From NCBI GenBank assembly GCA_016192685.1, contig JACPTS010000001.1, positions 33,412 through 97,411 on the forward strand: a stretch of DNA of 64,000 bases. The letters run 5' to 3'. A program made the position numbers and the translations under genes. How positions within the stretch are numbered: position 1 is the first letter of the stretch; each line of letters begins with the position of its first letter. This document shows positions 2,591 to 63,667 of the stretch, in pieces. The notes beneath the pieces were generated by a model. The model worked only from the letters and a program-made list of their open reading frames with translations, searched no databases and was not told the DNA's origin. The DNA is from Candidatus Harrisonbacteria bacterium (GTDB lineage Bacteria > Patescibacteriota > Minisyncoccia > UBA6257 > 02-FULL-45-10c).

Positions 2591-4905
2591 AACTTCTTTA
2601 ATCTTAAAGAATTTAATACTACGGAAAGCGAACTAAAAGCCATTGCCGCTCCGGCAAAAATAGGATTAAGCAAAATCCCCCATACCGGCCAAAAAACTCC
2701 GGCGGCTATCGGAATTAAAAGTATATTATAAAAGAAAGCCCAAAAGAGATTTTGTTTTATATTAGCCAAAGTTTTTCTGCTGATTACGACCGCATTGGCG
2801 ATTCCCAGCGGATCACCGGATACCAGCGTAATATCCGCGGATTCAATAGCAATATCCGTACCAGTGCCGATGGCAATTCCGACATCCGCCTGCGTTAACG
2901 CCGGCGCGTCATTAATCCCGTCACCAACCATTGCCACCATTTTCCCCGAAACTTGCAATTCCTTTATTTTCTCGGCTTTGTCTTGAGGCAAAACTCGCGC
3001 CATTACTTTGTCAATGCCGACAATCTGCGCAATCGCGCGCGCCGTCCGCTCATTATCGCCGGTAATAAGCCACACCTCTAAACCAAGCGAGCGCAATCGC
3101 TGAACAGCTTCTTTAGCGGTTGGTTTAATAGTATCCGCCACGGCAATAATTCCGAGAAGCGTTTGGGCATCGGCAAGAAGTAAAAGAGTTTTTCCGTCAC
3201 TTTCCAATCTTTCAATCAATTCCTGCCTGGCGGAAATATCAATTTTTTTTGATTGCATCAAAGCCGCGTTTCCGAAATAAAGTTTTTTATTGCCCTTCTC
3301 CGCCGCGACATCTCCTTCAATGCCCTGTCCGGGAATAGCTTTAAAATTCGTCACCGCGTAAAGCCGCGCTTTTTCCACGGCGGCTTTCACTGCCCTATCC
3401 AAAGGATGAGACGAAAAAGAACCCAAACTGGCCGCGTAAGCCACAATTGATTGCGCGATCGGATGTTCTGATAATTTTTCCAGAGACGCGGCGTATCGCA
3501 CGACTTTATTTTCACCATTCTCTAAAAATGCGATGACATCAGTTACCGACGGTTCACCCTTGGTAATAGTGCCAGTTTTATCCAAAACAACGGCATTTAC
3601 TTTACCGGCTAATTCCAGCGCTTCCGCGTCGCGGATAATTACTCCGTGTTCCGCCGCCTTGCCAGTGCCAACCATAATGGAAGTCGGAGTAGCCAATCCC
3701 ATAGCGCAAGGGCAAGCCACCACTAAAACCGCGATAGAATTTACTAAAGCAAACGAAAAAGCTGAATCGGTTCCTAATACCATCCAGGCCGCAAAAGTTG
3801 CAACGGAAATGAATAATACAATCGGCACAAAATAAGAAACTACTAAATCCGCCATTTTTTGAATCGGCGCGCGGCTGGCTTGAGCCGCTTCCACCATGGC
3901 GACTATTTGCGACAAAAAAGAATCTTGGCCGACCTTAGTCGCTTTCATTTTAAAGCTGGAAGTTTTATTGATAGTCGCTCCGATTACCGCGCCGCCTTCT
4001 TTTTTATCAACCGGAAGCGATTCGCCGGTAACCATTGATTCATCTAAAGTCGCCACGCCCTCAATAATAATTCCGTCCACCGGAATTTTTTCTCCCGGCT
4101 TCACAAGAAGAACATCGCCAGACACAACTTTTTCAATCGGAACTTCCATTTCGTGCCTGCCTTCATGCAAAAGATGGGCGGTTTTTGCCTGAAGTTTGAG
4201 CAATTTCTTGATTGCTTCTGATGCCGATCCCTTAGCTTTAGCTTCCAAATATTTCCCTAAAATCACTAAAGTAGTAACTACTGCCGCAACATCAAAATAC
4301 ACATCCAATTTTATCTGCGACTTAATTTGGGCAATCTCCAGAAAAGTCACCGCTAATCCGGAAAAATAAGCTACTCCGGTTCCTAAAACCACCAAAGTAT
4401 CCATACTGACATTGAAACGCTTTAATGAAGCCCAAGAACTTACCCAAAACTGCCTGCCAACTATAAATTCAACCGGAGTCGCCAAAACCATCAATAAGAA
4501 AAATCTGGCGCTTTTAGGCAAAAAATCCGATATAAACGGAAAATAATCCGGCAGACTTAAAATTATAATCGCCGCGGATAAAACCGCTCCGGCAAAAAAT
4601 TTCTTCCAAAGCTTTTTAATTTCTTCCTCTTTTAACATTTTGGCATGATCATGCTCGCCCATATCGCCAGACATCCGCATATTTACCATTTGCTCTTCCA
4701 CTAATTCATAACCGGTTTTTTCCTTAACAAAACTTTGAATTTTTTGGCTATCAATATCAGTCTTACTTTCAACCACCGCTTTTTCAGTCGCATAATTCAC
4801 ATTAGCGGATTCTAATTCCGGCATTCCTTTTAATGCCCTCTCAATCGTTAGGGCGCAAGACGCGCAATCCATTCCTCTTACTATGAATGTCTTTTTTTGT
4901 TTCAT
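2587..4905 (-). CDS. copA: copper-translocating P1B-type ATPase
   Basis: N-terminal MDCASC HMA domain; CPC transmembrane motif ([11 protein letters not shown]); DKTGT phosphorylation site; GDGINDAP hinge; 772 aa. Confidence 0.9.
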
Positions 4906-4921
4906 ATTATTTTTCTTTTTA

Positions 4922-5350
4922 TTATACTCCTTTTTTAAAACTTAAAATTAAAAATAACAAAAAAATCGCCGTAGCAGTAAGGGCAGAAACCATGCAATAT
5001 AAGCAAATCGCTTTAATCACAAAAACCTGCAGATAAACAAACCAAAGCGAAGCCAAAAATCCAACAATCGAAATTCGCATTAAGCCACTAAAATGTTTTT
5101 TATTTCCATTCCATAAATACCAAATCACTAAAAACAAAATCAGAAAATAATAAAACACTCCCAAAAGCGCTACCGGGATTCCCCCCAAAGTTGAATAAAT
5201 ACTGGCCGTAACCTTATCGCAGCCTTCTATTATTGAACAAATTACCGGCGCTCCCTGATAATGCTTAATTGCGAGATAAGATGCGTCTAAAAGACCGACT
5301 AAGCTAAGTGCCAGAATAATCCAAGCTAAATTTTTATTATTCTTAAACAT
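4922..5350 (-). CDS. VKOR (vitamin K epoxide reductase) family membrane protein
   Basis: 142 aa, 4 TM helices, loop Cys pair (CSIIEGC) and C-terminal CLYC redox motif. Confidence 0.5.
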
Positions 5351-5428
5351 AATTACTAATAATTCAGAAAACTAAAAAGCCCCCTAAGGAGCAAAATGGC
5401 GAATCTAAAATCAGCTAATAATAGCCGT

Positions 5429-5896
5429 TTAGAAACGCCCCATAAATAAAGCCGGGCTATTTTCCAAAAGCGAAAGCCAGGTTTGTATCGGAATAAGAAG
5501 TAAGCCGTTAGAAAACTGATTTGCTAAAAGATTTAACGGATAAAAATAGCGGTTTTCTTTCCGATTATGCGGAATAATGGAGGGGGTAAGAAAAGCGAGT
5601 AAGACGAGGCTAATAATTATTAGTAAATTTTGCGAGGCCGTAAAATTGGAAAGTACTTTTGCGGCATTAAGATGAAAATTCGCTTCGCTAAAAGGATTAC
5701 TGCCGGCCGGGCATTTTGCTCCCATCATCAAAGCAGCAATGCAACCGGAAAAATGACCTGTTCCCATATCCATTGCCAGCGCCCCCAAAACCGAAAGGCT
5801 CGCAAAACTTATAACCGCCATTAATAAAATCCATCTCATAACGCTTTTATTATAGCTCATAATATACTTAAAATAAAAGAGGCGTTGACGCCTCAA
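5429..5896 (-). CDS. hypothetical membrane protein
   Basis: hydrophobic N- and C-terminal helices; real start probably at internal Met (MSYNK or MRWIL). Confidence 0.35.
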   Translation of the reverse strand: MRRQRLFYFKYIMSYNKSVMRWILLMAVISFASLSVLGALAMDMGTGHFSGCIAALMMGAKCPAGSNPFSEANFHLNAAKVLSNFTASQNLLIIISLVLLAFLTPSIIPHNRKENRYFYPLNLLANQFSNGLLLIPIQTWLSLLENSPALFMGRF

Positions 5897-5900
5897 ACTT

Positions 5901-6317
5901 TTAATTGCTTTTCGGCAATTTAGGCAAAAGGAAACTGACGATGCTTCTGCCGGTCTTAAGATTTTTTTTCATTTCTTCCTGGTCAGGATTTAAGATTAAA
6001 GCCGGCATTTCTAAATTGGTCGTAATGGGTTCTCTTTCGTTATTTAAGGGGATAACCTGAAATTTAAGGCCTTTCGGATTTAATTTTATAAGTTCCACCC
6101 GCATTAAAATAACATCAATACCCTCTTTATCCGCCATTCGCAACTTAGCAATGCTCATGGCATCAATAACGGAACAAATTAACTGGTAAAAAATATCGGC
6201 TAAAGCTTTCGGCTCCTCTACTCCAAGGCATTCAGCCACGTCTTTTGCGAACATTTCCACAAAATCATGCTGAAATTTCCCCGGGTCTTCGCGGTATCCG
6301 GCTTCAACAAATTTCAT
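5901..6317 (-). CDS. hypothetical protein (138 aa)
   Basis: clean ORF, no motif recognised. Confidence 0.35.
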   Translation of the reverse strand: MKFVEAGYREDPGKFQHDFVEMFAKDVAECLGVEEPKALADIFYQLICSVIDAMSIAKLRMADKEGIDVILMRVELIKLNPKGLKFQVIPLNNEREPITTNLEMPALILNPDQEEMKKNLKTGRSIVSFLLPKLPKSN

Positions 6318-20007: not shown

Positions 20008-20221
20008 TCGTACGGCAACTACGGAGCTTCATCACTCCCAACCAACAACAATATAAAGAAAAACTCGGATAAAAAAGAAGTCGGCATGCTTCATAGAGCA
20101 ACTACGGAGGCGCTAAAAGCTTGTTCTTTTGCGAAGCAAAAGTTTTAGCGCCGAGGCGTAGATGCGCTCCGCAGCTAGAGCGGAGCGACATCGGTGCTCA
20201 TAGAAGTATGCTGACTTCTTA
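20008..20221 (+). repeat. structured intergenic repeat family 1, copy 1 (complete unit about 20079..20221 plus partial upstream duplication)
   Basis: shares gcaactacggag...tttcgcgaagcaaaag...cgaggcgtag core with 37804..37952 and 63517..63667; copy-specific terminal inverted repeat aagaagtc(g/a)gcat(g/a)cttcatagagc. Confidence 0.6.
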
Positions 20222-35950: not shown

Positions 35951-36265
35951 TTTTTAAAGAAAACTTTCTAGTTATCCCAACCTTATGCGGCCCGAATTTA
36001 ATCGGACAAGCAAATCGAGACTTGAGGCTCCTCGATCAAAACCTTTGCCTGCATTTTTCAATGCAGTATCGTACTCCATCAAATATAAATATTTGATTTT
36101 TGTTTAATTGATCCACGCACAGCTTCCGCTACGCGTGCCTTGTTACGACTTCTTCCATGTCACCGAATCTACCTTTATCCCGCCGAAGCGGAATTTCAGA
36201 TATCCCCGGCTCCCCTGAAGTGACGGGCGGTGAGTACAGGACTCGAGAACGTATTCACCGCGGCG

Positions 36266-36304
<39 letters not shown>

Positions 36305-36701
36305 GCGAGTTTCAGCCTCCAATCTGAACTGGGGCCATTTTTGATGGGATTAGCTCCGCCTTGCGGCTTGGCAACCCATTGTAATGGCCATTGTAGCACG
36401 AGTGTAGCCCAGGGCATCAGAGGGCCATGCGGATTTGACGTCATCCTCTCCTTCCTCCCCCAAAAAGAGGGCAGTCCCCGATGACACATATAACATCAGG
36501 TAAGGGTTGCGCTCGTTACCCCACTTAAGGGAACGTTTCAAAATACGAGCTGACGACAACCATGCAGCACCTGTCCAGCCGTTCCTTGAGAGAACATCCC
36601 ACGTTTCTGCGGGATTTCGTCTGGATTTCAAGCCCTGGTAAGGTTTCTCGCTTACTGTCGAATTGAACCTCATGCTCCACCGCTTGTGCGAGTCCCCGTC
36701 T

Positions 36702-36733
<32 letters not shown>

Positions 36734-37195
36734 TCCCAGGCGGCCTACTTAACGCGTTAGCTTCGCCACCCCGAGGGTCGATACTCGAGATAGCCAGTAG
36801 GCATCGTTTAGGGCGTGGACTACAAGGGTATCTACAATTTTGTTGCTTCGCAAAACTTTTATACTCGCTATGCTATTCTCGCTCATACTGCTGCGCGCTG
36901 GACAAAACTAATTCGCTCATAGCGGAAATTTATCACCCTAGTCGCATTCGCTCCTGGGTATCCCGATAAATTTCCTATTCGCTCAAAGTTTTGTAACCAT
37001 CGCTCCGCAACATTCGCTCAAACAGCATAACTCGTTTAATAATAGTTTTGCGTGACACAGACATTTCTGCTGTGTTCTCTGTGTTGCCATAGAGTTCGGA
37101 CTATATCATTCTCGCGCTTTGAAAAACGAATATCAATCATCTTGATACTCGTAGATCAAAGAGCGAGAATCGGCGTATAGTCTCTGAGGGGTTAA

Positions 37196-37450
37196 TTATT
37201 TTCCTTTTAATTTTTTGAGGTGTTTTTTCACGGTACGATCAACTAATTTAAACTCCGGTTCTTCCAAAATATCATGCGTTGTATATCCATATCTCTTACG
37301 GTCATTGGTTTTCCAAATTGCTTCAATAGACGGCAATCCTCTGCTTTTCAGTTCTTCATTCACGGTTTCTAGAACAGCTTTTAATTTCTTATTTGATTTG
37401 CTTGTGCAAACGATTTCTACAAACCTAAATTTTGAGTCAGGCCTTGACAT
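37196..37450 (-). CDS. intron-encoded small basic protein (84 aa from MSRPDSK), function unknown (no LAGLIDADG/GIY-YIG motif seen)
   Basis: preceded by a perfect Shine-Dalgarno AAGGAGGTG 7 nt upstream of ATG; embedded in the rRNA insertion. Confidence 0.35.
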   Translation of the reverse strand: MSRPDSKFRFVEIVCTSKSNKKLKAVLETVNEELKSRGLPSIEAIWKTNDRKRYGYTTHDILEEPEFKLVDRTVKKHLKKLKGK

Positions 37451-37803
37451 CGTCCACCTCCTTTTTAAATTAACTTCCCTGCTGGTTGTCCGCACCGACG
37501 CGTTTTCACCAGCGATTTGTTTTTGAAATTTCAAAAACAAATCGCTGGTAGCGTCGGATACGCCGGATTTTCCAGCATATAGCCGATTTTACATTCCAGT
37601 GTTGCCACTGAAAGGGACCATATGCGTCTCCGGAAAATTCCGGAGTCACTTCTTTATACCCTAAAGAGAGTGAGATTATTTTTGCGAACCAATAAAATTA
37701 TATTTGCTTCACTTATTTATCTATTTATCGTGCGGCAACATTTATTTTAATTTCTTGCCGAACTGCCGAGTTATCATAGAGAAACTTTATACAATCTAAA
37801 CGA

Positions 37804-37952
37804 GCTCTGCCTGTGTTTCGTGCGGCAACTACGGAGCTCCGAAATGCTTGGCTTTCGCGAAGCGAAAATTTCGGAGCGAGGCGTAGACGCGTTTCGCCGC
37901 AGGAGCGAAACGACGCCGGTGCCGTCAGAAATACAGGCGGAGCGAGTAAAAC
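37804..37952 (+). repeat. structured repeat family 1, copy 2 (inside the rRNA insertion)
   Basis: core identical to copies at 20079..20221 and 63517..63667; own terminal inverted repeat c(t/c)gcctgt(g/a)tttc. Confidence 0.6.
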
Positions 37953-38170
37953 TCATAGACAATTCGGCGGAGCGGCATTTTCAAAATGAATGCCGATGCC
38001 GGTAGACAAATAAGTGAAGCAAATGAGTTCGTAAAAATAACCGAACGATCCTTTTTGCTCCCCACGCTTTCGTGCAATGAGAGTCAGTAATGCGCCAGCC
38101 AAATGCTTTCGCCTTTGGTATTCCCCACGATATCAACGGATTTCACCCCTACACCGTGAGTTCTATTGGC

Positions 38171-38459
38171 CTCTCGCACACTCTAGACAAGTCCCCTCTG
38201 TACAAATGTTTCCACTAAATTGAAATCATTGATTTTGTATCAAGTTCAAGGCGCGAGGAGGAAATCGTAGGGTTACCTACCTTTCCGACTCGCAACGCAG
38301 AAATTGATCAAAATCAAGATTCCCGAAGGGTAAGGAAATTTTTGTCAGCTTCTTCGTTAGTCGTCGCTAGTGTATCTAAAGATACACTTCGCTCCTCCTG
38401 CCTTGAATTTAACTCAAAATTTCCTTATCAATTAGTGAAAATATTTGTACAGAGGGGAC
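38171..38459 (-). other. ~290-nt intervening sequence (IVS) in 16S helix region ~E. coli 650, bounded by a perfect 33-bp inverted repeat
   Basis: gtcccctctgtacaaatgtttccactaaattga ... tcaattagtgaaaatatttgtacagaggggac; flanks align to 16S; core homologous to 61408..61678. Confidence 0.7.
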
Positions 38460-38989
38460 AGCAGTTTTTGCTGCAGCCTCGAAGTTGAGCCCCGAGATTT
38501 AACAGCAAACTTGCTGGTCCTCCTACGCACTCTTTACGCCCAATAAATCCGGATAACGCTTGGAGCCCTCGTATTACCGCGGCTGCTGGCACGAGGTTAG
38601 CAGCTCCTTATTCCTCTGGTACTATCAGCCTTGCGGCTTTCTCCCAGAGAAAAGCAGTTTACAATCCTTAGACCTTCATCCTGCACGCGGCGTCGCTCGA
38701 TCAGGCTTTCGCCCATTGTCGAATATTCTCGACTGCTGCCACCCGTAGGTGTACGAGCCGTGTCTCAGTCTCGTCGTTGGGGAACACCCTCTCAGGCCCC
38801 CTACTGGTCATAGCCTTGGTAGGCCATTACCCTACCAACTAGCTGATCAGACCTAGGCCGCTCCCAAAGCCCCTTGCGGGTTTTAATCCGAATGTTGCAT
38901 CGGATGCTATCGGGCATTACCCCGCCTTTCGGCGAGCTGTGCCCGTCTTTAGGGTACGTACCAAGGTGTTACTAACTCGTTCGCCGCTC

Positions 38990-39075
38990 GCCTTCGGCTC
39001 GGACAAATAACTTTTAACAAATAACTAATAACGAAATTGTTAATAGTTATAAGTTATTTAGTTATTAGTCCGAGC
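38990..39075 (-). other. expanded V1 helix of 16S (~60-nt AT-rich palindromic extension)
   Basis: ggactaataactaaataacttataactattaacaatttcgttattagttatttgttaaaagttatttgtccgag between conserved GCAAGTCG and GGCGAACG. Confidence 0.5.
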
Positions 39076-39448
39076 TAAAAGCTCGCACGACTTGCATGCC
39101 TTATCCACGCCGCCAGCGTTCATCCTGGACCAGGATCAAATCCTCTAAATAAAAGTCAGTTGCACAGAACCCTCGAACGAGTTCCTAGCAACTAACCTTC
39201 GTATTGGGACAACTAGAAAATTTTCTTTTTTACTTGTAATTTTACTAAATTACTAAATTTTATATATTTAGTTATCAAGCCAGCATGTATTATCTTTAAT
39301 TAGTAAAAATAATACACCTATCTTGCGGTTCGTGGTTTTCACCGAGTCAAACTCGGCTTCACACCAGCGGCAAGATAGATGCATTTAGAACCTATCTAGT
39401 AATCTATGAAATTTTTAAATAAAAACTTATTTCATTAAGGTAGTTCTA

Positions 39449-39558: not shown

Positions 39559-39583
39559 GATGAAAATTCTCGAGAATTTTCTT

Positions 39584-60327: not shown

Positions 60328-61359
60328 CTACTTCTTTCTTTTTAAAACTTTTTTTACCGCGGCTTTTATATCTTTCACTCCCATGCCGTATTTTTCTATC
60401 AAATCCTTCGGCGGCCCGGATTCGCCAAAAATATTCTGCAGGCCGATAAATTCCATCGGCACGGGTAAATTTTTCGCCAGCAGCTCGGCAACGGCGCCGC
60501 CAAGCCCTCCCAAAACCTGATGCTCCTCCACCGTAACTGCCGCGCCGCAAGTTTCCGCAACTTCCAAAATAGTTTTTTCGTCTAAAGGTTTAATCGTATG
60601 GCAATTAACCACATAAGCGCCGATTCCTTCTTCATCCAGTTCTTTTGCGGCCAGAAGCGCGTAATGCACTAACGAACCGCAGCCGATTATCGCCACTTGC
60701 GGATTTTTCTTACGGCTGCCCTTTCCGGCCGACTCCCAAAAAATTTCCGCTTTTCCCGGCGTAAAAGGCGTTTCTTCCGTAGTAAGTACCGGCATTTTCT
60801 CGCGGCCGAATCGCAGATAAACCGGACCCCAAATTTTAGCGGCGGCCATAGTGGCTTTTTTCGCTTCAATCGCGTCGCAAGGAACAATTACTTTCATATT
60901 CGCCATCACCCGCATCGTGGCAATATCCTCAATCGCCTGATGAGTGGCTCCATCCGGGCCAACGGAAATTCCGGCATGGGCGCCGGCAATTTTCACATTA
61001 GAATCGTTGTAGGAAATAGTAGTCCGAATCTGTTCCCAGTTCCGGCCAGGGGAAAAAGTCGCGTAAGAAGAAATAAACGGAATTTTCCCGCTTACTCCCA
61101 AACCAGAAGCAATCGTCGCCAAATTTTGTTCCGCGACTCCGACTTCAAAAAACCGTTCGGGAAATTTTTTAGAAAAAGCTTCCGAACGGGTAGATTCAGT
61201 TAAATCTGCGCAAAGCACTACTACATTAGAATTTTGGTCTCCGGCAATTACTAAACCTTCGCCATAACCGTCACGAGTCGCCCGCTGTTCAATATCTTTA
61301 TCAAAAATTTTAGAACTTAACTTTACTTTAGAATTAAGCATGCTCAAAAATTTACTCAT
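60328..61359 (-). CDS. transketolase, C-terminal (pyrimidine-binding) subunit
   Basis: FEVGVAEQNLATIASGL, HAGISVGPDGATHQAIEDIA. Confidence 0.85.
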   Translation of the reverse strand: MSKFLSMLNSKVKLSSKIFDKDIEQRATRDGYGEGLVIAGDQNSNVVVLCADLTESTRSEAFSKKFPERFFEVGVAEQNLATIASGLGVSGKIPFISSYATFSPGRNWEQIRTTISYNDSNVKIAGAHAGISVGPDGATHQAIEDIATMRVMANMKVIVPCDAIEAKKATMAAAKIWGPVYLRFGREKMPVLTTEETPFTPGKAEIFWESAGKGSRKKNPQVAIIGCGSLVHYALLAAKELDEEGIGAYVVNCHTIKPLDEKTILEVAETCGAAVTVEEHQVLGGLGGAVAELLAKNLPVPMEFIGLQNIFGESGPPKDLIEKYGMGVKDIKAAVKKVLKRKK

Positions 61360-61407
61360 AGGTCCAATAAGACTTATCAGACCTATTATGAAAATTCTCG
61401 AGAATTA

Positions 61408-61678
61408 GGAATCTATTTTAATAATAATTCCCTAACGCGATACTAGCCAATTTTGGCTAGGACAAGGCGCAAGGAGGAAATCGCAGCTTAAGCTGCCTTT
61501 CCGACGAGCAACGCAGTCATAGACAAAATTGGCTGTATCCCTTTGGGTTGTCGCTAAAATGAATTATCTCTGTGTCGTTCCTCCTCGAGGTAGCTATGGC
61601 TACGATCTCGTCGTCACTCCTTGAGCTAATTCATTTTAGCTGACAACGCGTTGGTGAATTTTTATTAAAATAGATTCC
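61408..61678. repeat. ~270-bp TIR-bounded structured element, paralogue of the 16S IVS (38171..38459)
   Basis: terminal inverted repeats ggaatctattttaataa / ttattaaaatagattcc; core caaggcgcaaggaggaaatcgcag...cctttccgacgagcaacgcag matches the IVS core with compensatory hairpin changes. Confidence 0.6.
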
Positions 61679-61680
61679 CC

Positions 61681-61929
61681 CTACATTCCTCCTTTTTCTT
61701 CTGCCGAACACATTCCGCAGTTGCCGCAATGGGATTTTTTACCTAAAGCAAGGACGCCCAAAACTAAAGCGTTCCAATACCAGGCAAGCGGCTCAAGGCC
61801 CCAAACTAAATTTTTCTGCCATACTGCTAACCAAGCCAGCGCAAGTGATGCCGCCGCCGCCAGCCATAAAACATGGCCAAGAAGCGGCCGCCAGCAGCAA
61901 TGCCAGTGCCATTTTCCGTGATTCATCAT
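61681..61929 (-). CDS. small membrane protein with C-terminal CGNCGMC motif (paralogue of 39584..39805)
   Basis: LVWGLEPLAWYWNALVLGVL block; stop codon abuts the TIR element. Confidence 0.45.
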   Translation of the reverse strand: MMNHGKWHWHCCWRPLLGHVLWLAAAASLALAWLAVWQKNLVWGLEPLAWYWNALVLGVLALGKKSHCGNCGMCSAEEKGGM

Positions 61930-62006
61930 AAAAAAATTATAAAATCTTAATTTTTACGACCTTTTTCGTCAACAAAATAACTAATTATTATTATAACAAA
62001 TCTGCT

Positions 62007-62870
62007 TTATTGATGCTCGCTTTTAATCTGCCCGCCAAGCGTCCGCAATTCCACCAGCGCCTTTTTTGCCTCATCTGGTGTTGGCGGTTTGCCATGCCAT
62101 TCAAAACGATTTTCCATAAAACTGACTCCTTTCCCGGGAACTGTATGCGCGATAATCACGGTTGGTTTTTCATAAATGGCTTTTGCTTCATTCACTGCGG
62201 AAATAAAAGCGGCAATGTCATGACCGCCAACTTCAATCACGTGCCAATTAAAAGATTCATATTTTTCCCGCAATGGCTCAAGCGGCATTACTTCTTCGGT
62301 AAAACCGTCAATCTGGATATTATTCCGGTCCATAATTACGGTAAGATTATTTAATTTGGATTTTTGCTTGCCGGCAAACATAATCGCTTCCCAAGTATTA
62401 CCCTCTTCATGTTCACCGTCAGAAGTAAGGCAATACACGCGGGATTTTTTCTTATCCAGCCGAGCGGCGAGCGCCATACCGATAGCTTGCGAAATCCCGG
62501 AGCCGAGCGGCCCGGAAGTAGTTTCCAAACCTGGTAGAGAATTTCGGTGGGGGTGCCCCTGCAGCCGAGAATTTATTTTCCGAAGCGTAAAAAGTTCTTC
62601 CATCGGAAAATATCCGGCATTGGCAAGCGCCGCGTAAAGCACCGGGCAAATATGGCCGTTGGAAACCACTACTCTGTCCCTATCCGGCCAGCCGGGGTTT
62701 TTCGGGTCGTGATTTAAAATATGAAAGTAAAGCGCGGTAAAAATATCCGCCATCCCAAGCGGTCCGGCTGAATGCCCGGATTTTGCCTCAACCAGCATCT
62801 CAATAATATCTTGTCTAATCTTGTTAGACATCTCCTCTAAAAACTGCAATTTTTTCTCGTGAAGCTCCAT
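62007..62870 (-). CDS. transketolase, N-terminal (TPP-binding) subunit
   Basis: GHSAGPLGMADIFTALYF, TSDGEHEEGNTWEA. Confidence 0.85.
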   Translation of the reverse strand: MELHEKKLQFLEEMSNKIRQDIIEMLVEAKSGHSAGPLGMADIFTALYFHILNHDPKNPGWPDRDRVVVSNGHICPVLYAALANAGYFPMEELFTLRKINSRLQGHPHRNSLPGLETTSGPLGSGISQAIGMALAARLDKKKSRVYCLTSDGEHEEGNTWEAIMFAGKQKSKLNNLTVIMDRNNIQIDGFTEEVMPLEPLREKYESFNWHVIEVGGHDIAAFISAVNEAKAIYEKPTVIIAHTVPGKGVSFMENRFEWHGKPPTPDEAKKALVELRTLGGQIKSEHQ

Positions 62871-63499: not shown

Positions 63500-63516
63500 A
63501 AATAAATTTTAACATA

Positions 63517-63667
63517 AAAGCGGGTAACTATCTTTCGTACGGCAACTACGGAGCTCCGAAAAGATTGGTTTTTCGCGAAGCGAAAATTTTCGGAGCGAGG
63601 CGTAGGAGCCGCTTGCCGCTGGAGCAAGCGGACTCCGGTGCCGATAGGAAGATGGTTACCCGCTTTT
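63517..63667 (+). repeat. structured repeat family 1, copy 3 (complete, with ~21-bp terminal inverted repeats aaagcgggtaac(t/c)atctt)
   Basis: cgtacggcaactacggagctccgaaaag...tttcgcgaagcgaaaattttcggagcgaggcgtag... Confidence 0.65.

Follow-up and report, generated by a model that had tools for sequence, protein, structure and literature searches.

We analyzed a 64,000-nt stretch of DNA from a Candidatus Harrisonbacteria bacterium (contig JACPTS010000001.1, positions 33,412 to 97,411; hereafter, the window), in which the 16S rRNA gene is interrupted by an intervening sequence (IVS) that has a second copy in an intergenic spacer of a transketolase locus. The bacterial 16S gene lies on the minus strand at 36101-39151, as placed by alignment to Rfam RF00177, and holds three additions, namely a longer helix 6 hairpin, an insert of ~270 nt (the IVS), and a ~1.2-kb group-I-like intron. 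At the IVS site, the Rfam small-subunit alignment contains an insertion of ~294 nt, and this alignment together with covariance-model boundaries delimits an insert of 269 nt at 38191-38459. This insert, copy 1 of the element, resides in the 3′ strand at the base of 16S helix 21, directly before helix 22 and not at a helix tip, which corresponds roughly to position 645-650 of the Escherichia coli 16S rRNA; its flanks read ..CAGCAAAAACUG on one side and CUAGAGUG on the other. An earlier note on this DNA had placed the start of the IVS at 38171, but the first ~20 nt from there are genuine 16S sequence, and the real start is 38191. Copy 2 (61408-61678) occupies a spacer bounded by a small open reading frame (ORF; 61681-61929) and the transketolase C-terminal gene (60328-61359).

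The two copies are clearly related. A 54-nt core of copy 1 (38247-38300) recurs in copy 2 at 61463-61516 (blastn, 68 nt at 81% identity, E 3e-9), and an nhmmer search of the window matched the core of copy 1 to copy 2 with an E value of 1.5e-10. Under the R1 covariance model, run over the window with filters off, copies 2 and 1 scored 279.6 and 205.6 bits, respectively; the next match reached 22 bits, and this model thus detects no third copy in the window. The earlier proposal that the IVS has a paralogue at 61408-61678 is borne out by these values, and the similarity survives alignment statistics. The 16S insert and 61408-61678 are two copies, from different subfamilies, of one ~270-bp non-coding palindromic mobile element, whose family is spread through Ca. 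Harrisonbacteria and neighboring Parcubacteria/Patescibacteria.

Anatomy of the two copies

Each copy, described here with the element sense equal to the 16S sense, is ~270 nt long and comprises a long closing stem and a four-way junction. The interior consists of two inverted modules of ~55 nt, each with its own small hairpin, and of a short central hairpin, so that either single strand can fold into the four-way junction. The minimum free energy (MFE) is -118.8 kcal/mol for both copies (z -11.8 for copy 1 and z -12.1 for copy 2), and no ORF longer than 31 amino acids lies wholly within either of them. The features, with the evidence for each in brackets, are as follows.

38191-38459, minus strand: element copy 1 (subfamily A), the 16S IVS, 269 nt (R1 covariance model, 205.6 bits; nhmmer, 184 bits)
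38432-38459, minus strand: copy 1 closing stem, 5′ arm, terminal inverted repeat (repeat search and MFE)
38191-38218, minus strand: copy 1 closing stem, 3′ arm, terminal inverted repeat (repeat search and MFE)
38349-38407, minus strand: copy 1 purine-rich arm, variant 1 (family alignment and helix pair counts)
38322-38330, minus strand: copy 1 short central hairpin at the four-way junction, CCC-UUC-GGG in RNA sense (MFE and alignment)
38247-38300, minus strand: copy 1 invariant core arm, CUGCGUUGCGAGUCGGAAAGG-(GUAGG..CCUAC)-CGAUUUCCUCCUCGCGCCUUG (blastn/nhmmer match to copy 2; columns invariant in 30 copies)
61408-61678, minus strand: element copy 2 (subfamily B), 271 nt (R1 covariance model, 279.6 bits; nhmmer, 245 bits)
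61647-61678, minus strand: copy 2 closing stem, 5′ arm, with the family-typical end R-GAAyCUAU (blastn self-match; termini aligned across copies)
61408-61439, minus strand: copy 2 closing stem, 3′ arm, ..AUAGrUUC-Y (blastn self-match; aligned termini)
61568-61625, minus strand: copy 2 purine-rich arm, variant 2, GACGACGAG..hairpin..CGAGGAGGA (family alignment)
61539-61547, minus strand: copy 2 short central hairpin, CCC-AAA-GGG (MFE and alignment)
61463-61516, minus strand: copy 2 invariant core arm, CUGCGUUGCUCGUCGGAAAGG-(GCAGC..GCUGC)-CGAUUUCCUCCUUGCGCCUUG (blastn/nhmmer and alignment)
61393-61406, no strand assigned: truncated spacer palindrome GAAAATTCTCGAGAATTTTC, abutting the 3′ end of copy 2 (filled versus empty site comparison)
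38460-39151, minus strand: 16S 5′ segment upstream of the IVS (Rfam RF00177; blastn to relatives' 16S genes)
38048-38190, minus strand: 16S segment between the IVS and the group I intron (Rfam alignment; blastn to relatives' 16S)
36101-36834, minus strand: 16S 3′ segment (Rfam alignment; blastn to relatives' 16S)

The terminal arms of copy 1 are 28 nt long with 93% complementarity, and its MFE stem runs on past 40 bp; those of copy 2 measure 32 nt at 91% in a blastn self-match. The terminal repeats therefore do differ in sequence, as the earlier note had it, but the lengths of 33 and 17 bp given there do not hold. Similarly, the closing stem does change between the copies, but this change separates two old subfamilies and is not free stem variation: subfamily B stems end in R-GAAyCUAUC...GAUAGrUUC-Y, and subfamily A stems in GUCCCCUCUGUACAAAUA.... 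Because the copies belong to two subfamilies, they present a conserved interior between terminal repeats that had seemed "completely different".

The pyrimidine-rich arm carries the invariant core, GUCGGAAAGG-hairpin-CGAUUUCCUCCUCGCGCCUUG (also written GUCGGAAAGG-hairpin-CGAUUUCCUCCUCGCGCC), which sits in this one arm. Its inner hairpin changes from GUAGG/CCUAC in copy 1 to GCAGC/GCUGC in copy 2; the compensatory nature of this change, recognized already from the two copies, extends to 30 members, across which the same hairpin covaries (for example, UA:19 versus CG:10 at one pair). The purine-rich helix exists in two strand-exchanged versions, the IVS type GGAGGAGCGA...AGCGACGAC and the majority type GACGACGAG...CGAGGAGGA. 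In both, tandem G.A pairs are spaced by G-C pairs around an inner hairpin, which is variable in the majority form. The arm of copy 2 is the G.A/G-C helix of copy 1 with its strands exchanged, with G-C to C-G flips between the variants at pairs 73-138 and 76-135, and variant 1 is a true inverted copy of the core arm. Moreover, the purine-rich strand of each arm bears TTCAAGGCG...GAGGAGGAAATCG-hairpin-CCTTTCCGACGAG in the conserved inverted modules. In most copies, a CAAGG in the left arm could pair with a CCUUG in the right arm, but this pairing is preserved by only about half of the variant sequences, and both motifs may simply be inverted copies of one site. The short central hairpin has the family form ACCC-loop-GGGAUAC, with UUCG- or GNRA-like loops.

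The consensus fold is strongly supported by covariation. Across its 106 pairs, standard pairing is seen in 84.5% of cells, whereas sliding the 3′ partners lowers this value to 36-42%, and 83 pairs show both-sided changes; none of 500 column shuffles reached the observed values. RNAalifold, applied independently, found compensatory changes in 34 of 47 pairs. This covariation demonstrates that the capacity to form hairpins is important, whether in single-stranded DNA or in any RNA transcribed from the element, and does not identify an RNA gene.

Several other features of the window were noted. The group-I-like intron of the 16S gene spans ~1213 nt (36835-38047) and matches RF00028 with 42.5 bits, under the curated cut-off; its ORF (37196-37540, 114 aa) matches no Pfam family. 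Relatives L098, L102, and L133 (L numbers denote the fetched loci introduced below) lack the intron in their 16S genes, and L110 has a 434-nt insert at that site. The AT-rich hairpin of 16S helix 6 (38990-39082) is ~65-73 nt longer than in relatives. The transketolase is split (60328-62870), with N- and C-terminal genes around a conserved, cysteine-rich small ORF of 81-87 aa; this ORF has no Pfam match, and the split arrangement is found in all relatives examined. The window further contains a second, unrelated structured repeat family of ~150-nt intergenic copies (63516-63667 and 20077-20218), with a long closing stem, two inner hairpins, folding energies of -87 and -84 kcal/mol, and the shared motifs GCAACTACGGAG..CGAGGCGTAG..CGGTGCnCATAGrAAG; neither copy reaches an Rfam gathering score.

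A dispersed family and its empty sites

To collect the family, the core pattern TCGGAAAGG-N10-18-CGATTTCCTCC was scanned over species-representative genomes. It yielded 89 loci, of which ~45, about half, are true members that share the extended core and its flanks; the others are unrelated, mostly coding matches. All true members lie in assemblies of the candidate phyla radiation (CPR, or Patescibacteria), including several Ca. Harrisonbacteria, the "Parcubacteria group", and unclassified groundwater bins. An nhmmer profile built from 31 copies gives, at scores of 60 bits or more, at least 44 copies in 14 CPR assemblies plus the window, and finds single-arm remnants in L030 and L068. Each assembly holds 1-9 copies, a lower bound, since fetching was restricted to loci that match the core exactly. 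When flanked copies are aligned, similarity ends abruptly at both element ends, which shows that the unit is discrete.

At least four subfamilies can be told apart, chiefly by their outer stems. The IVS copy clusters with L010, L049, L062, L013, and L029, and copy 2 with L006, L025, L005, and others. Copies within one genome are 63% identical and those from different genomes 61%, and subfamilies are common to several genomes. Rfam 15 holds no family for the element at the gathering threshold across 45 loci, and matches at E <= 1 and E <= 5 over both window copies were chance miRNA/snoRNA-type hairpins only. Searches of GenBank phages, PLSDB plasmids, and IMG/VR viral contigs gave no match, and we found no description of such a family in the published literature. 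It is a new, previously undescribed repeat family of very small genomes.

Other members occupy diverse sites, with a tendency toward spacers and stable-RNA genes, including those for rRNA. A Parcubacteria 23S gene carries one copy (L004) in rRNA sense, ~350 nt away from the 5′ end of the gene. L110 comes from a relative of the window organism, and its 16S helix 17 holds a 266-nt member (119 bits under the covariance model) antisense to the rRNA; in L133, a ~1.1-kb group-II-like insertion near position 1400 of the 16S gene encloses a member of 98.6 bits. The IVS is thus not a one-off rRNA expansion, as had been suspected from the two copies, since the family also interrupts a second 16S helix, a 23S gene, and an intron in rRNA. 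Seven copies are adjacent to tRNA genes, at 6-122 nt, and six of these are on the same strand as the tRNA, which is a trend only. The remaining copies occupy short spacers, often beginning a few bases past a stop codon; the spot after an M23-peptidase/LysM gene is filled in five genomes, in one of them in the opposite orientation. The ORFs that flank elements are housekeeping genes by Pfam (M23 peptidase/LysM, RecG-like helicase, DoxX), with no transposase among them.

Some loci call for separate mention. In helix 17, the 16S gene of L102 (locus positions 4358-6143) carries an insert of 313 nt with a closing stem of 22-25 bp, which we rejected as a family member; on visual inspection, a small coding stretch resembling GIY-YIG seemed to be present in it. 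As helix 17 is occupied by this non-member in L102 and by a member of the family in L110, inserts of different types share rRNA sites. An apparent inversion between L036 and L089 was not relied on, as a simple inversion would not account for the arrangement of the adjacent tRNA. Some subfamily-A copies, in L010 (2227-2490) and L052 (217-461), end on both sides in GC-hairpin and T-run sequences that resemble intrinsic terminators, and in L052 a whole terminator palindrome of ~30 bp stands on each side of the element.

Both sites filled in the window are empty in close relatives. For the 16S site, 80 metagenome loci were fetched via the release-factor gene that neighbors the 16S gene. The site is contiguous in the eight loci that contain the relevant segment (L096-L098, L100, L102, L110, L126, and L133), with flank identities to the window of ~87% to 96% (94-96% in L096-L098, L100, and L102); in L102, for example, the uninterrupted site reads ...GCAGCAAAUACUGAAAAUCUAGAGUG.... 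This comparison carries out a check that had been proposed with the first description, and relatives with a 16S gene free of the IVS do exist. At the transketolase locus, the gene order His_Phos - Rpe - TktN - small ORF - TktC - M50 peptidase - PfkB is kept in relatives, whose spacers between the small ORF and TktC compare with the window as follows.

L090: TktC identity 89%; small ORF-TktC spacer 66 nt; no family match
L092/L093: TktC identity 88%; small ORF-TktC spacer 80 nt; no family match
L091: TktC identity 91%; small ORF-TktC spacer 183 nt; no family match

In the spacer before TktC, L090, L091, and L092 keep the palindrome GAAAATTCTCGAGAATTTTC. In the window, the filled-site junction reads ...TGTAGGG-element-TAATTCTCGAGAATTTTCA, with copy 2 directly 5′ of a truncated GAAAATTCTCGAGAATTTTC, and relative to the empty sites this remnant (61393-61406) marks the insertion point of copy 2. 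The palindrome is probably an operator or a promoter-associated site; a full, perfect example occurs at 39562-39581, upstream of the 16S gene. By these site comparisons, both window copies are insertions, present or absent at orthologous sites. The description of a mobile, stem-closed element of ~270-280 nt that occurs inside and outside rRNA is accordingly upheld, with a dispersed family and two sites that are empty in close relatives. The transketolase spacers of L091 (~1950-2075) and of L094/L095 (~2860-2960) contain other, unrelated palindromic inserts, which suggests that these small genomes hold several hairpin-forming repeat families.

A probable DNA-level palindrome and its alternatives

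We then consider at which level, DNA or RNA, complementarity is kept. Sense and antisense strands fold equally well, with a mean energy difference of 0.0 kcal/mol and the sense strand better in 16 of 30 copies. Paired cells are ~80% Watson-Crick, with wobble pairs at ~4% on either strand. Further, copies that lie among co-directional genes are oriented ~9 in sense and 7 in antisense. An apparent sense-strand bias (G-U against A-C, 143 to 102 with the sense-derived structure; 45 to 25 in a first hand count) was rejected as an artefact, for it reversed (129 against 112) with the antisense-derived structure while folding energies were equal. This strand symmetry, together with the antisense rRNA copy and with presence and absence among relatives, argues for complementarity that is kept at the DNA level, as in REPINs, and against selection on a single RNA strand. 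Where the earlier note had spoken of a "transposable structured RNA", equal folding on both strands, the lack of a G-U excess, and the use of both orientations favor a DNA-level palindrome. We therefore regard the 16S IVS and its kin, with a probability of roughly 0.7, as a DNA-level palindromic mobile element that resembles miniature inverted-repeat transposable elements (MITEs) and REPINs.

Such an element would be moved at the DNA level by a trans-acting enzyme encoded elsewhere. The enzyme would probably recognize both of the conserved inverted modules, most likely when they are folded as single-stranded DNA, in a manner that may be compared with HUH/RAYT-type or IS110-type systems. The element possibly prefers hairpin-forming targets, such as operator palindromes, terminators, and rRNA/tRNA genes. 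In the 16S gene, the transcript would close on itself through the stem of 28 nt to >40 bp, thereby bringing the rRNA flanks together and restoring the local fold, and because of this self-closure the element would be harmless there. The closing stem should also be a good RNase III substrate, and the insert is probably cut out by this enzyme without ligation, which would leave a two-piece 16S rRNA. In this regard, the IVS literature describes classical IVS stems of ~28 bp as RNase III substrates (PMC4990558), and the introduction of PMC11270868, citing Brown et al., reports that insertions in CPR rRNA genes are missing from transcripts.

Several observations weigh against a mobile DNA element. 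The 16S site at the base of helix 21 is unusual when compared with the helix tips used by classical IVSs. No transposase and no autonomous parent insertion sequence (IS) with matching ends was found in the ~1.3 Mb of fetched loci, and a phmmer search for a Y1/HUH transposase, with three Y1 transposase sequences as queries against 6157 ORFs of these loci, gave no match, although this was a weak and uninformative test. Nor was a target-site duplication found at the flanks of ~30 copies or between the filled and empty transketolase spacers. In these ~30 copies, pairing at the element ends extends by one covarying R-Y pair and then stops, and an apparent "TA" duplication proved to be this terminal extension combined with AT-rich flanks. 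Transposition is therefore inferred from presence/absence and dispersal only. Moreover, the transketolase site is also filled in the more distant L038, by a copy that is only 70% identical, and the nearest relatives of copy 2 (86%) lie at unrelated sites in other genomes; this suggests a site preference or repeated gain and loss, and the occupancy in L038 in particular needs either site preference or loss in the intermediate lineages. One orthologous pair is 96% identical while its flanking genes are 87% and 70% identical. Near-identical copies within one genome are absent (the maximum is 89%) and copy numbers are low, so there is no sign of a recent burst. Finally, the 41 columns that are invariant across 30 copies, like the conservation of that orthologous pair, are as compatible with a host-useful or RNA-level function as with a need for transposase binding.

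Some of these points lead directly to an unlikely alternative, namely that the element is a structural feature retained by the host, like repetitive extragenic palindromic (REP) sequences, which acts as a bidirectional terminator or insulator, or as a stabilizer of mRNA and tRNA ends, and whose rRNA copies are accidental. The strongly conserved orthologous pair, the site filled downstream of the M23 peptidase in five genomes, the copies directly past stop codons and beside tRNAs, and the terminator-like GC hairpins and T-runs at some subfamily-A ends (L010 and L052) all agree with a host role, and the symmetric fold would suit bidirectional action. However, close relatives manage without the element in the same spacer, insertions in 16S, 23S, and intron sequence serve no terminator use, and a 270-nt four-way junction that encloses an invariant core is more than a terminator requires. 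The two explanations overlap, as a mobile element can be co-opted. Rather unlikely, in our view, is a further possibility in which the four-way junction itself, as folded single-stranded DNA or RNA, is the active part of a new hairpin-guided mobility system that aims at hairpin-forming sequences. Its targets might be rRNA helices, terminators, operators, and tRNA flanks, and it might excise itself cleanly from rRNA. If this were true, a partner enzyme or an intrinsic catalytic activity would be involved, and a single, hitherto unknown class of elements would account for much of the burden of "uncharacterized" insertions in CPR rRNA genes.

The strong covariation and the same 41 columns could also reflect a strand-specific functional RNA with a protein partner, regulatory or scaffolding, whose core and junction are selected as RNA. 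The UUCG- or GNRA-like central loops, the survival of the G.A/G-C helix through a strand swap, and the co-orientation with stable RNA in six of seven tRNA-adjacent and two of three rRNA copies point the same way. We consider this quite improbable, as there is no strand asymmetry in stability or in wobble use (G-U pairs make up only ~4%), copies lie in both gene orientations and even antisense in the L110 16S gene, presence varies among close relatives, and no Rfam family matches at E <= 1-5. A new ORF-less self-excising intron or ribozyme, with or without ligation, would explain why a core 16S position tolerates the insert at the base of helix 21, and would fit the conserved junction and core as well as the reported removal of CPR rRNA insertions from transcripts (PMC11270868, introduction). 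This is nevertheless very improbable: Rfam group I/II introns and self-cleaving ribozymes show no similarity to the element, a family copy is antisense in another 16S gene, intergenic copies occur in both orientations, and strand symmetry is not expected of a ribozyme. As for chance, AT-rich long hairpins can inflate weak matches, but after testing no support is left for a fortuitous similarity, or for copy 2 as a decayed rRNA fragment, and we give either next to no chance. The E values of 3e-9 and 1.5e-10, the covariance scores of 206 and 280 bits against 22 for the next match, and the 44 homologous copies speak against the former; with regard to the latter, which the earlier note had raised as an objection, copy 2 stands between the small ORF and the transketolase gene and has no Rfam rRNA match.

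Relation to known systems

The mobile element favored here is closest in several respects to REPINs, which are mobilized by RAYT tyrosine transposases (Bertels & Rainey 2011, PMC3116915). Like them, it is non-coding and non-autonomous, and persists in different species with low turnover. Both also (i) combine two inverted, hairpin-bearing modules that turn the whole unit into a long hairpin, with compensatory changes that keep the pairing, and (ii) lack an obvious target-site duplication, and the single-arm remnants of L030 and L068 are comparable to REP singlets. In contrast to REPINs of ~70-110 bp, the element measures ~270 bp and has a long outer stem and a central hairpin, which make it a four-way junction; its modules are ~55 nt, whereas a REP unit is ~20-40 nt, and bear no GTAG-type REP signature. 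It is seen in 1-9 copies per assembly, where REPINs number tens to hundreds, and its hosts are CPR bacteria, in which it also lies within rRNA genes. The weak Y1 search mentioned above likewise turned up no RAYT.

Bacterial MITEs include the Correia elements of Neisseria, RUP, ERIC, and the Rickettsia palindromic elements; Correia elements are RNase III targets, and Rickettsia palindromic elements also land inside genes. With MITEs the element shares its short length (269/271 nt), the absence of coding capacity, terminal inverted repeats, dispersal, insertion polymorphism, and a hairpin when co-transcribed. It differs in making no target-site duplication, whereas Correia and RUP duplicate TA, and in that its most conserved part is internal rather than the terminal repeat. 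We know of no parent IS with matching ends.

When it lies in an rRNA gene, the element behaves like the RNase III-excised IVSs of Salmonella, Leptospira, and Coxiella (PMC4990558), as it interrupts the gene, is sporadic among relatives, and has complementary ends with a stem of ~28 bp. Unlike these IVSs, it lies in 16S and not in 23S, and not in helices 9, 25, or 45; copy 1 is placed on one strand at the base of helix 21, replaces no tetraloop, and contains no ORF. Further, it has clear paralogues outside rRNA, which classical IVSs lack. The origin of IVSs has been open since 1990, with a "remnant of a transposition event" as one standing hypothesis in the discussion of PMC4990558. Because the 16S IVS has paralogues in intergenic DNA, in another 16S helix, in 23S, and in an intron, as well as empty sites, a transposition origin is directly testable here. 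The 16S insert, being one copy of the family, shows that an rRNA IVS can arise from a transposable repeat.

In their treatment of CPR rRNA genes, Tsurumaki et al. (2024; PMC11270868) left ORF-less inserts that are neither group I nor group II introns unclassified, and some were suggested to be RNase III-type IVSs. The present insert comes from the same host group and represents the same phenomenon, and one such "uncharacterized" insertion now belongs to a defined sequence and structure family that also occurs outside rRNA. Through the family, at least some of these insertions acquire a name and a model with which to search for them; the family is also relevant to 16S-based surveys and to the assembly of these organisms. 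It also represents a structurally unusual non-autonomous mobile element in genomes of ~0.6 Mb, in which selfish DNA is expected to be scarce. Strong covariation alone, moreover, is no proof of an RNA-level function, as the two strands are equally structured here.

A more distant parallel is found in the mobile GC clusters and double-hairpin elements of fungal and algal mitochondria (e.g., PMC4478555), which are likewise small palindromes in rRNA variable regions and intergenic DNA; those are, however, organellar, much shorter, and GC-rich, with no sequence relation to the element. In summary, the element functions most nearly as a REPIN or MITE does and, when it resides in rRNA, as a classical IVS does, although it misses defining features of all three.

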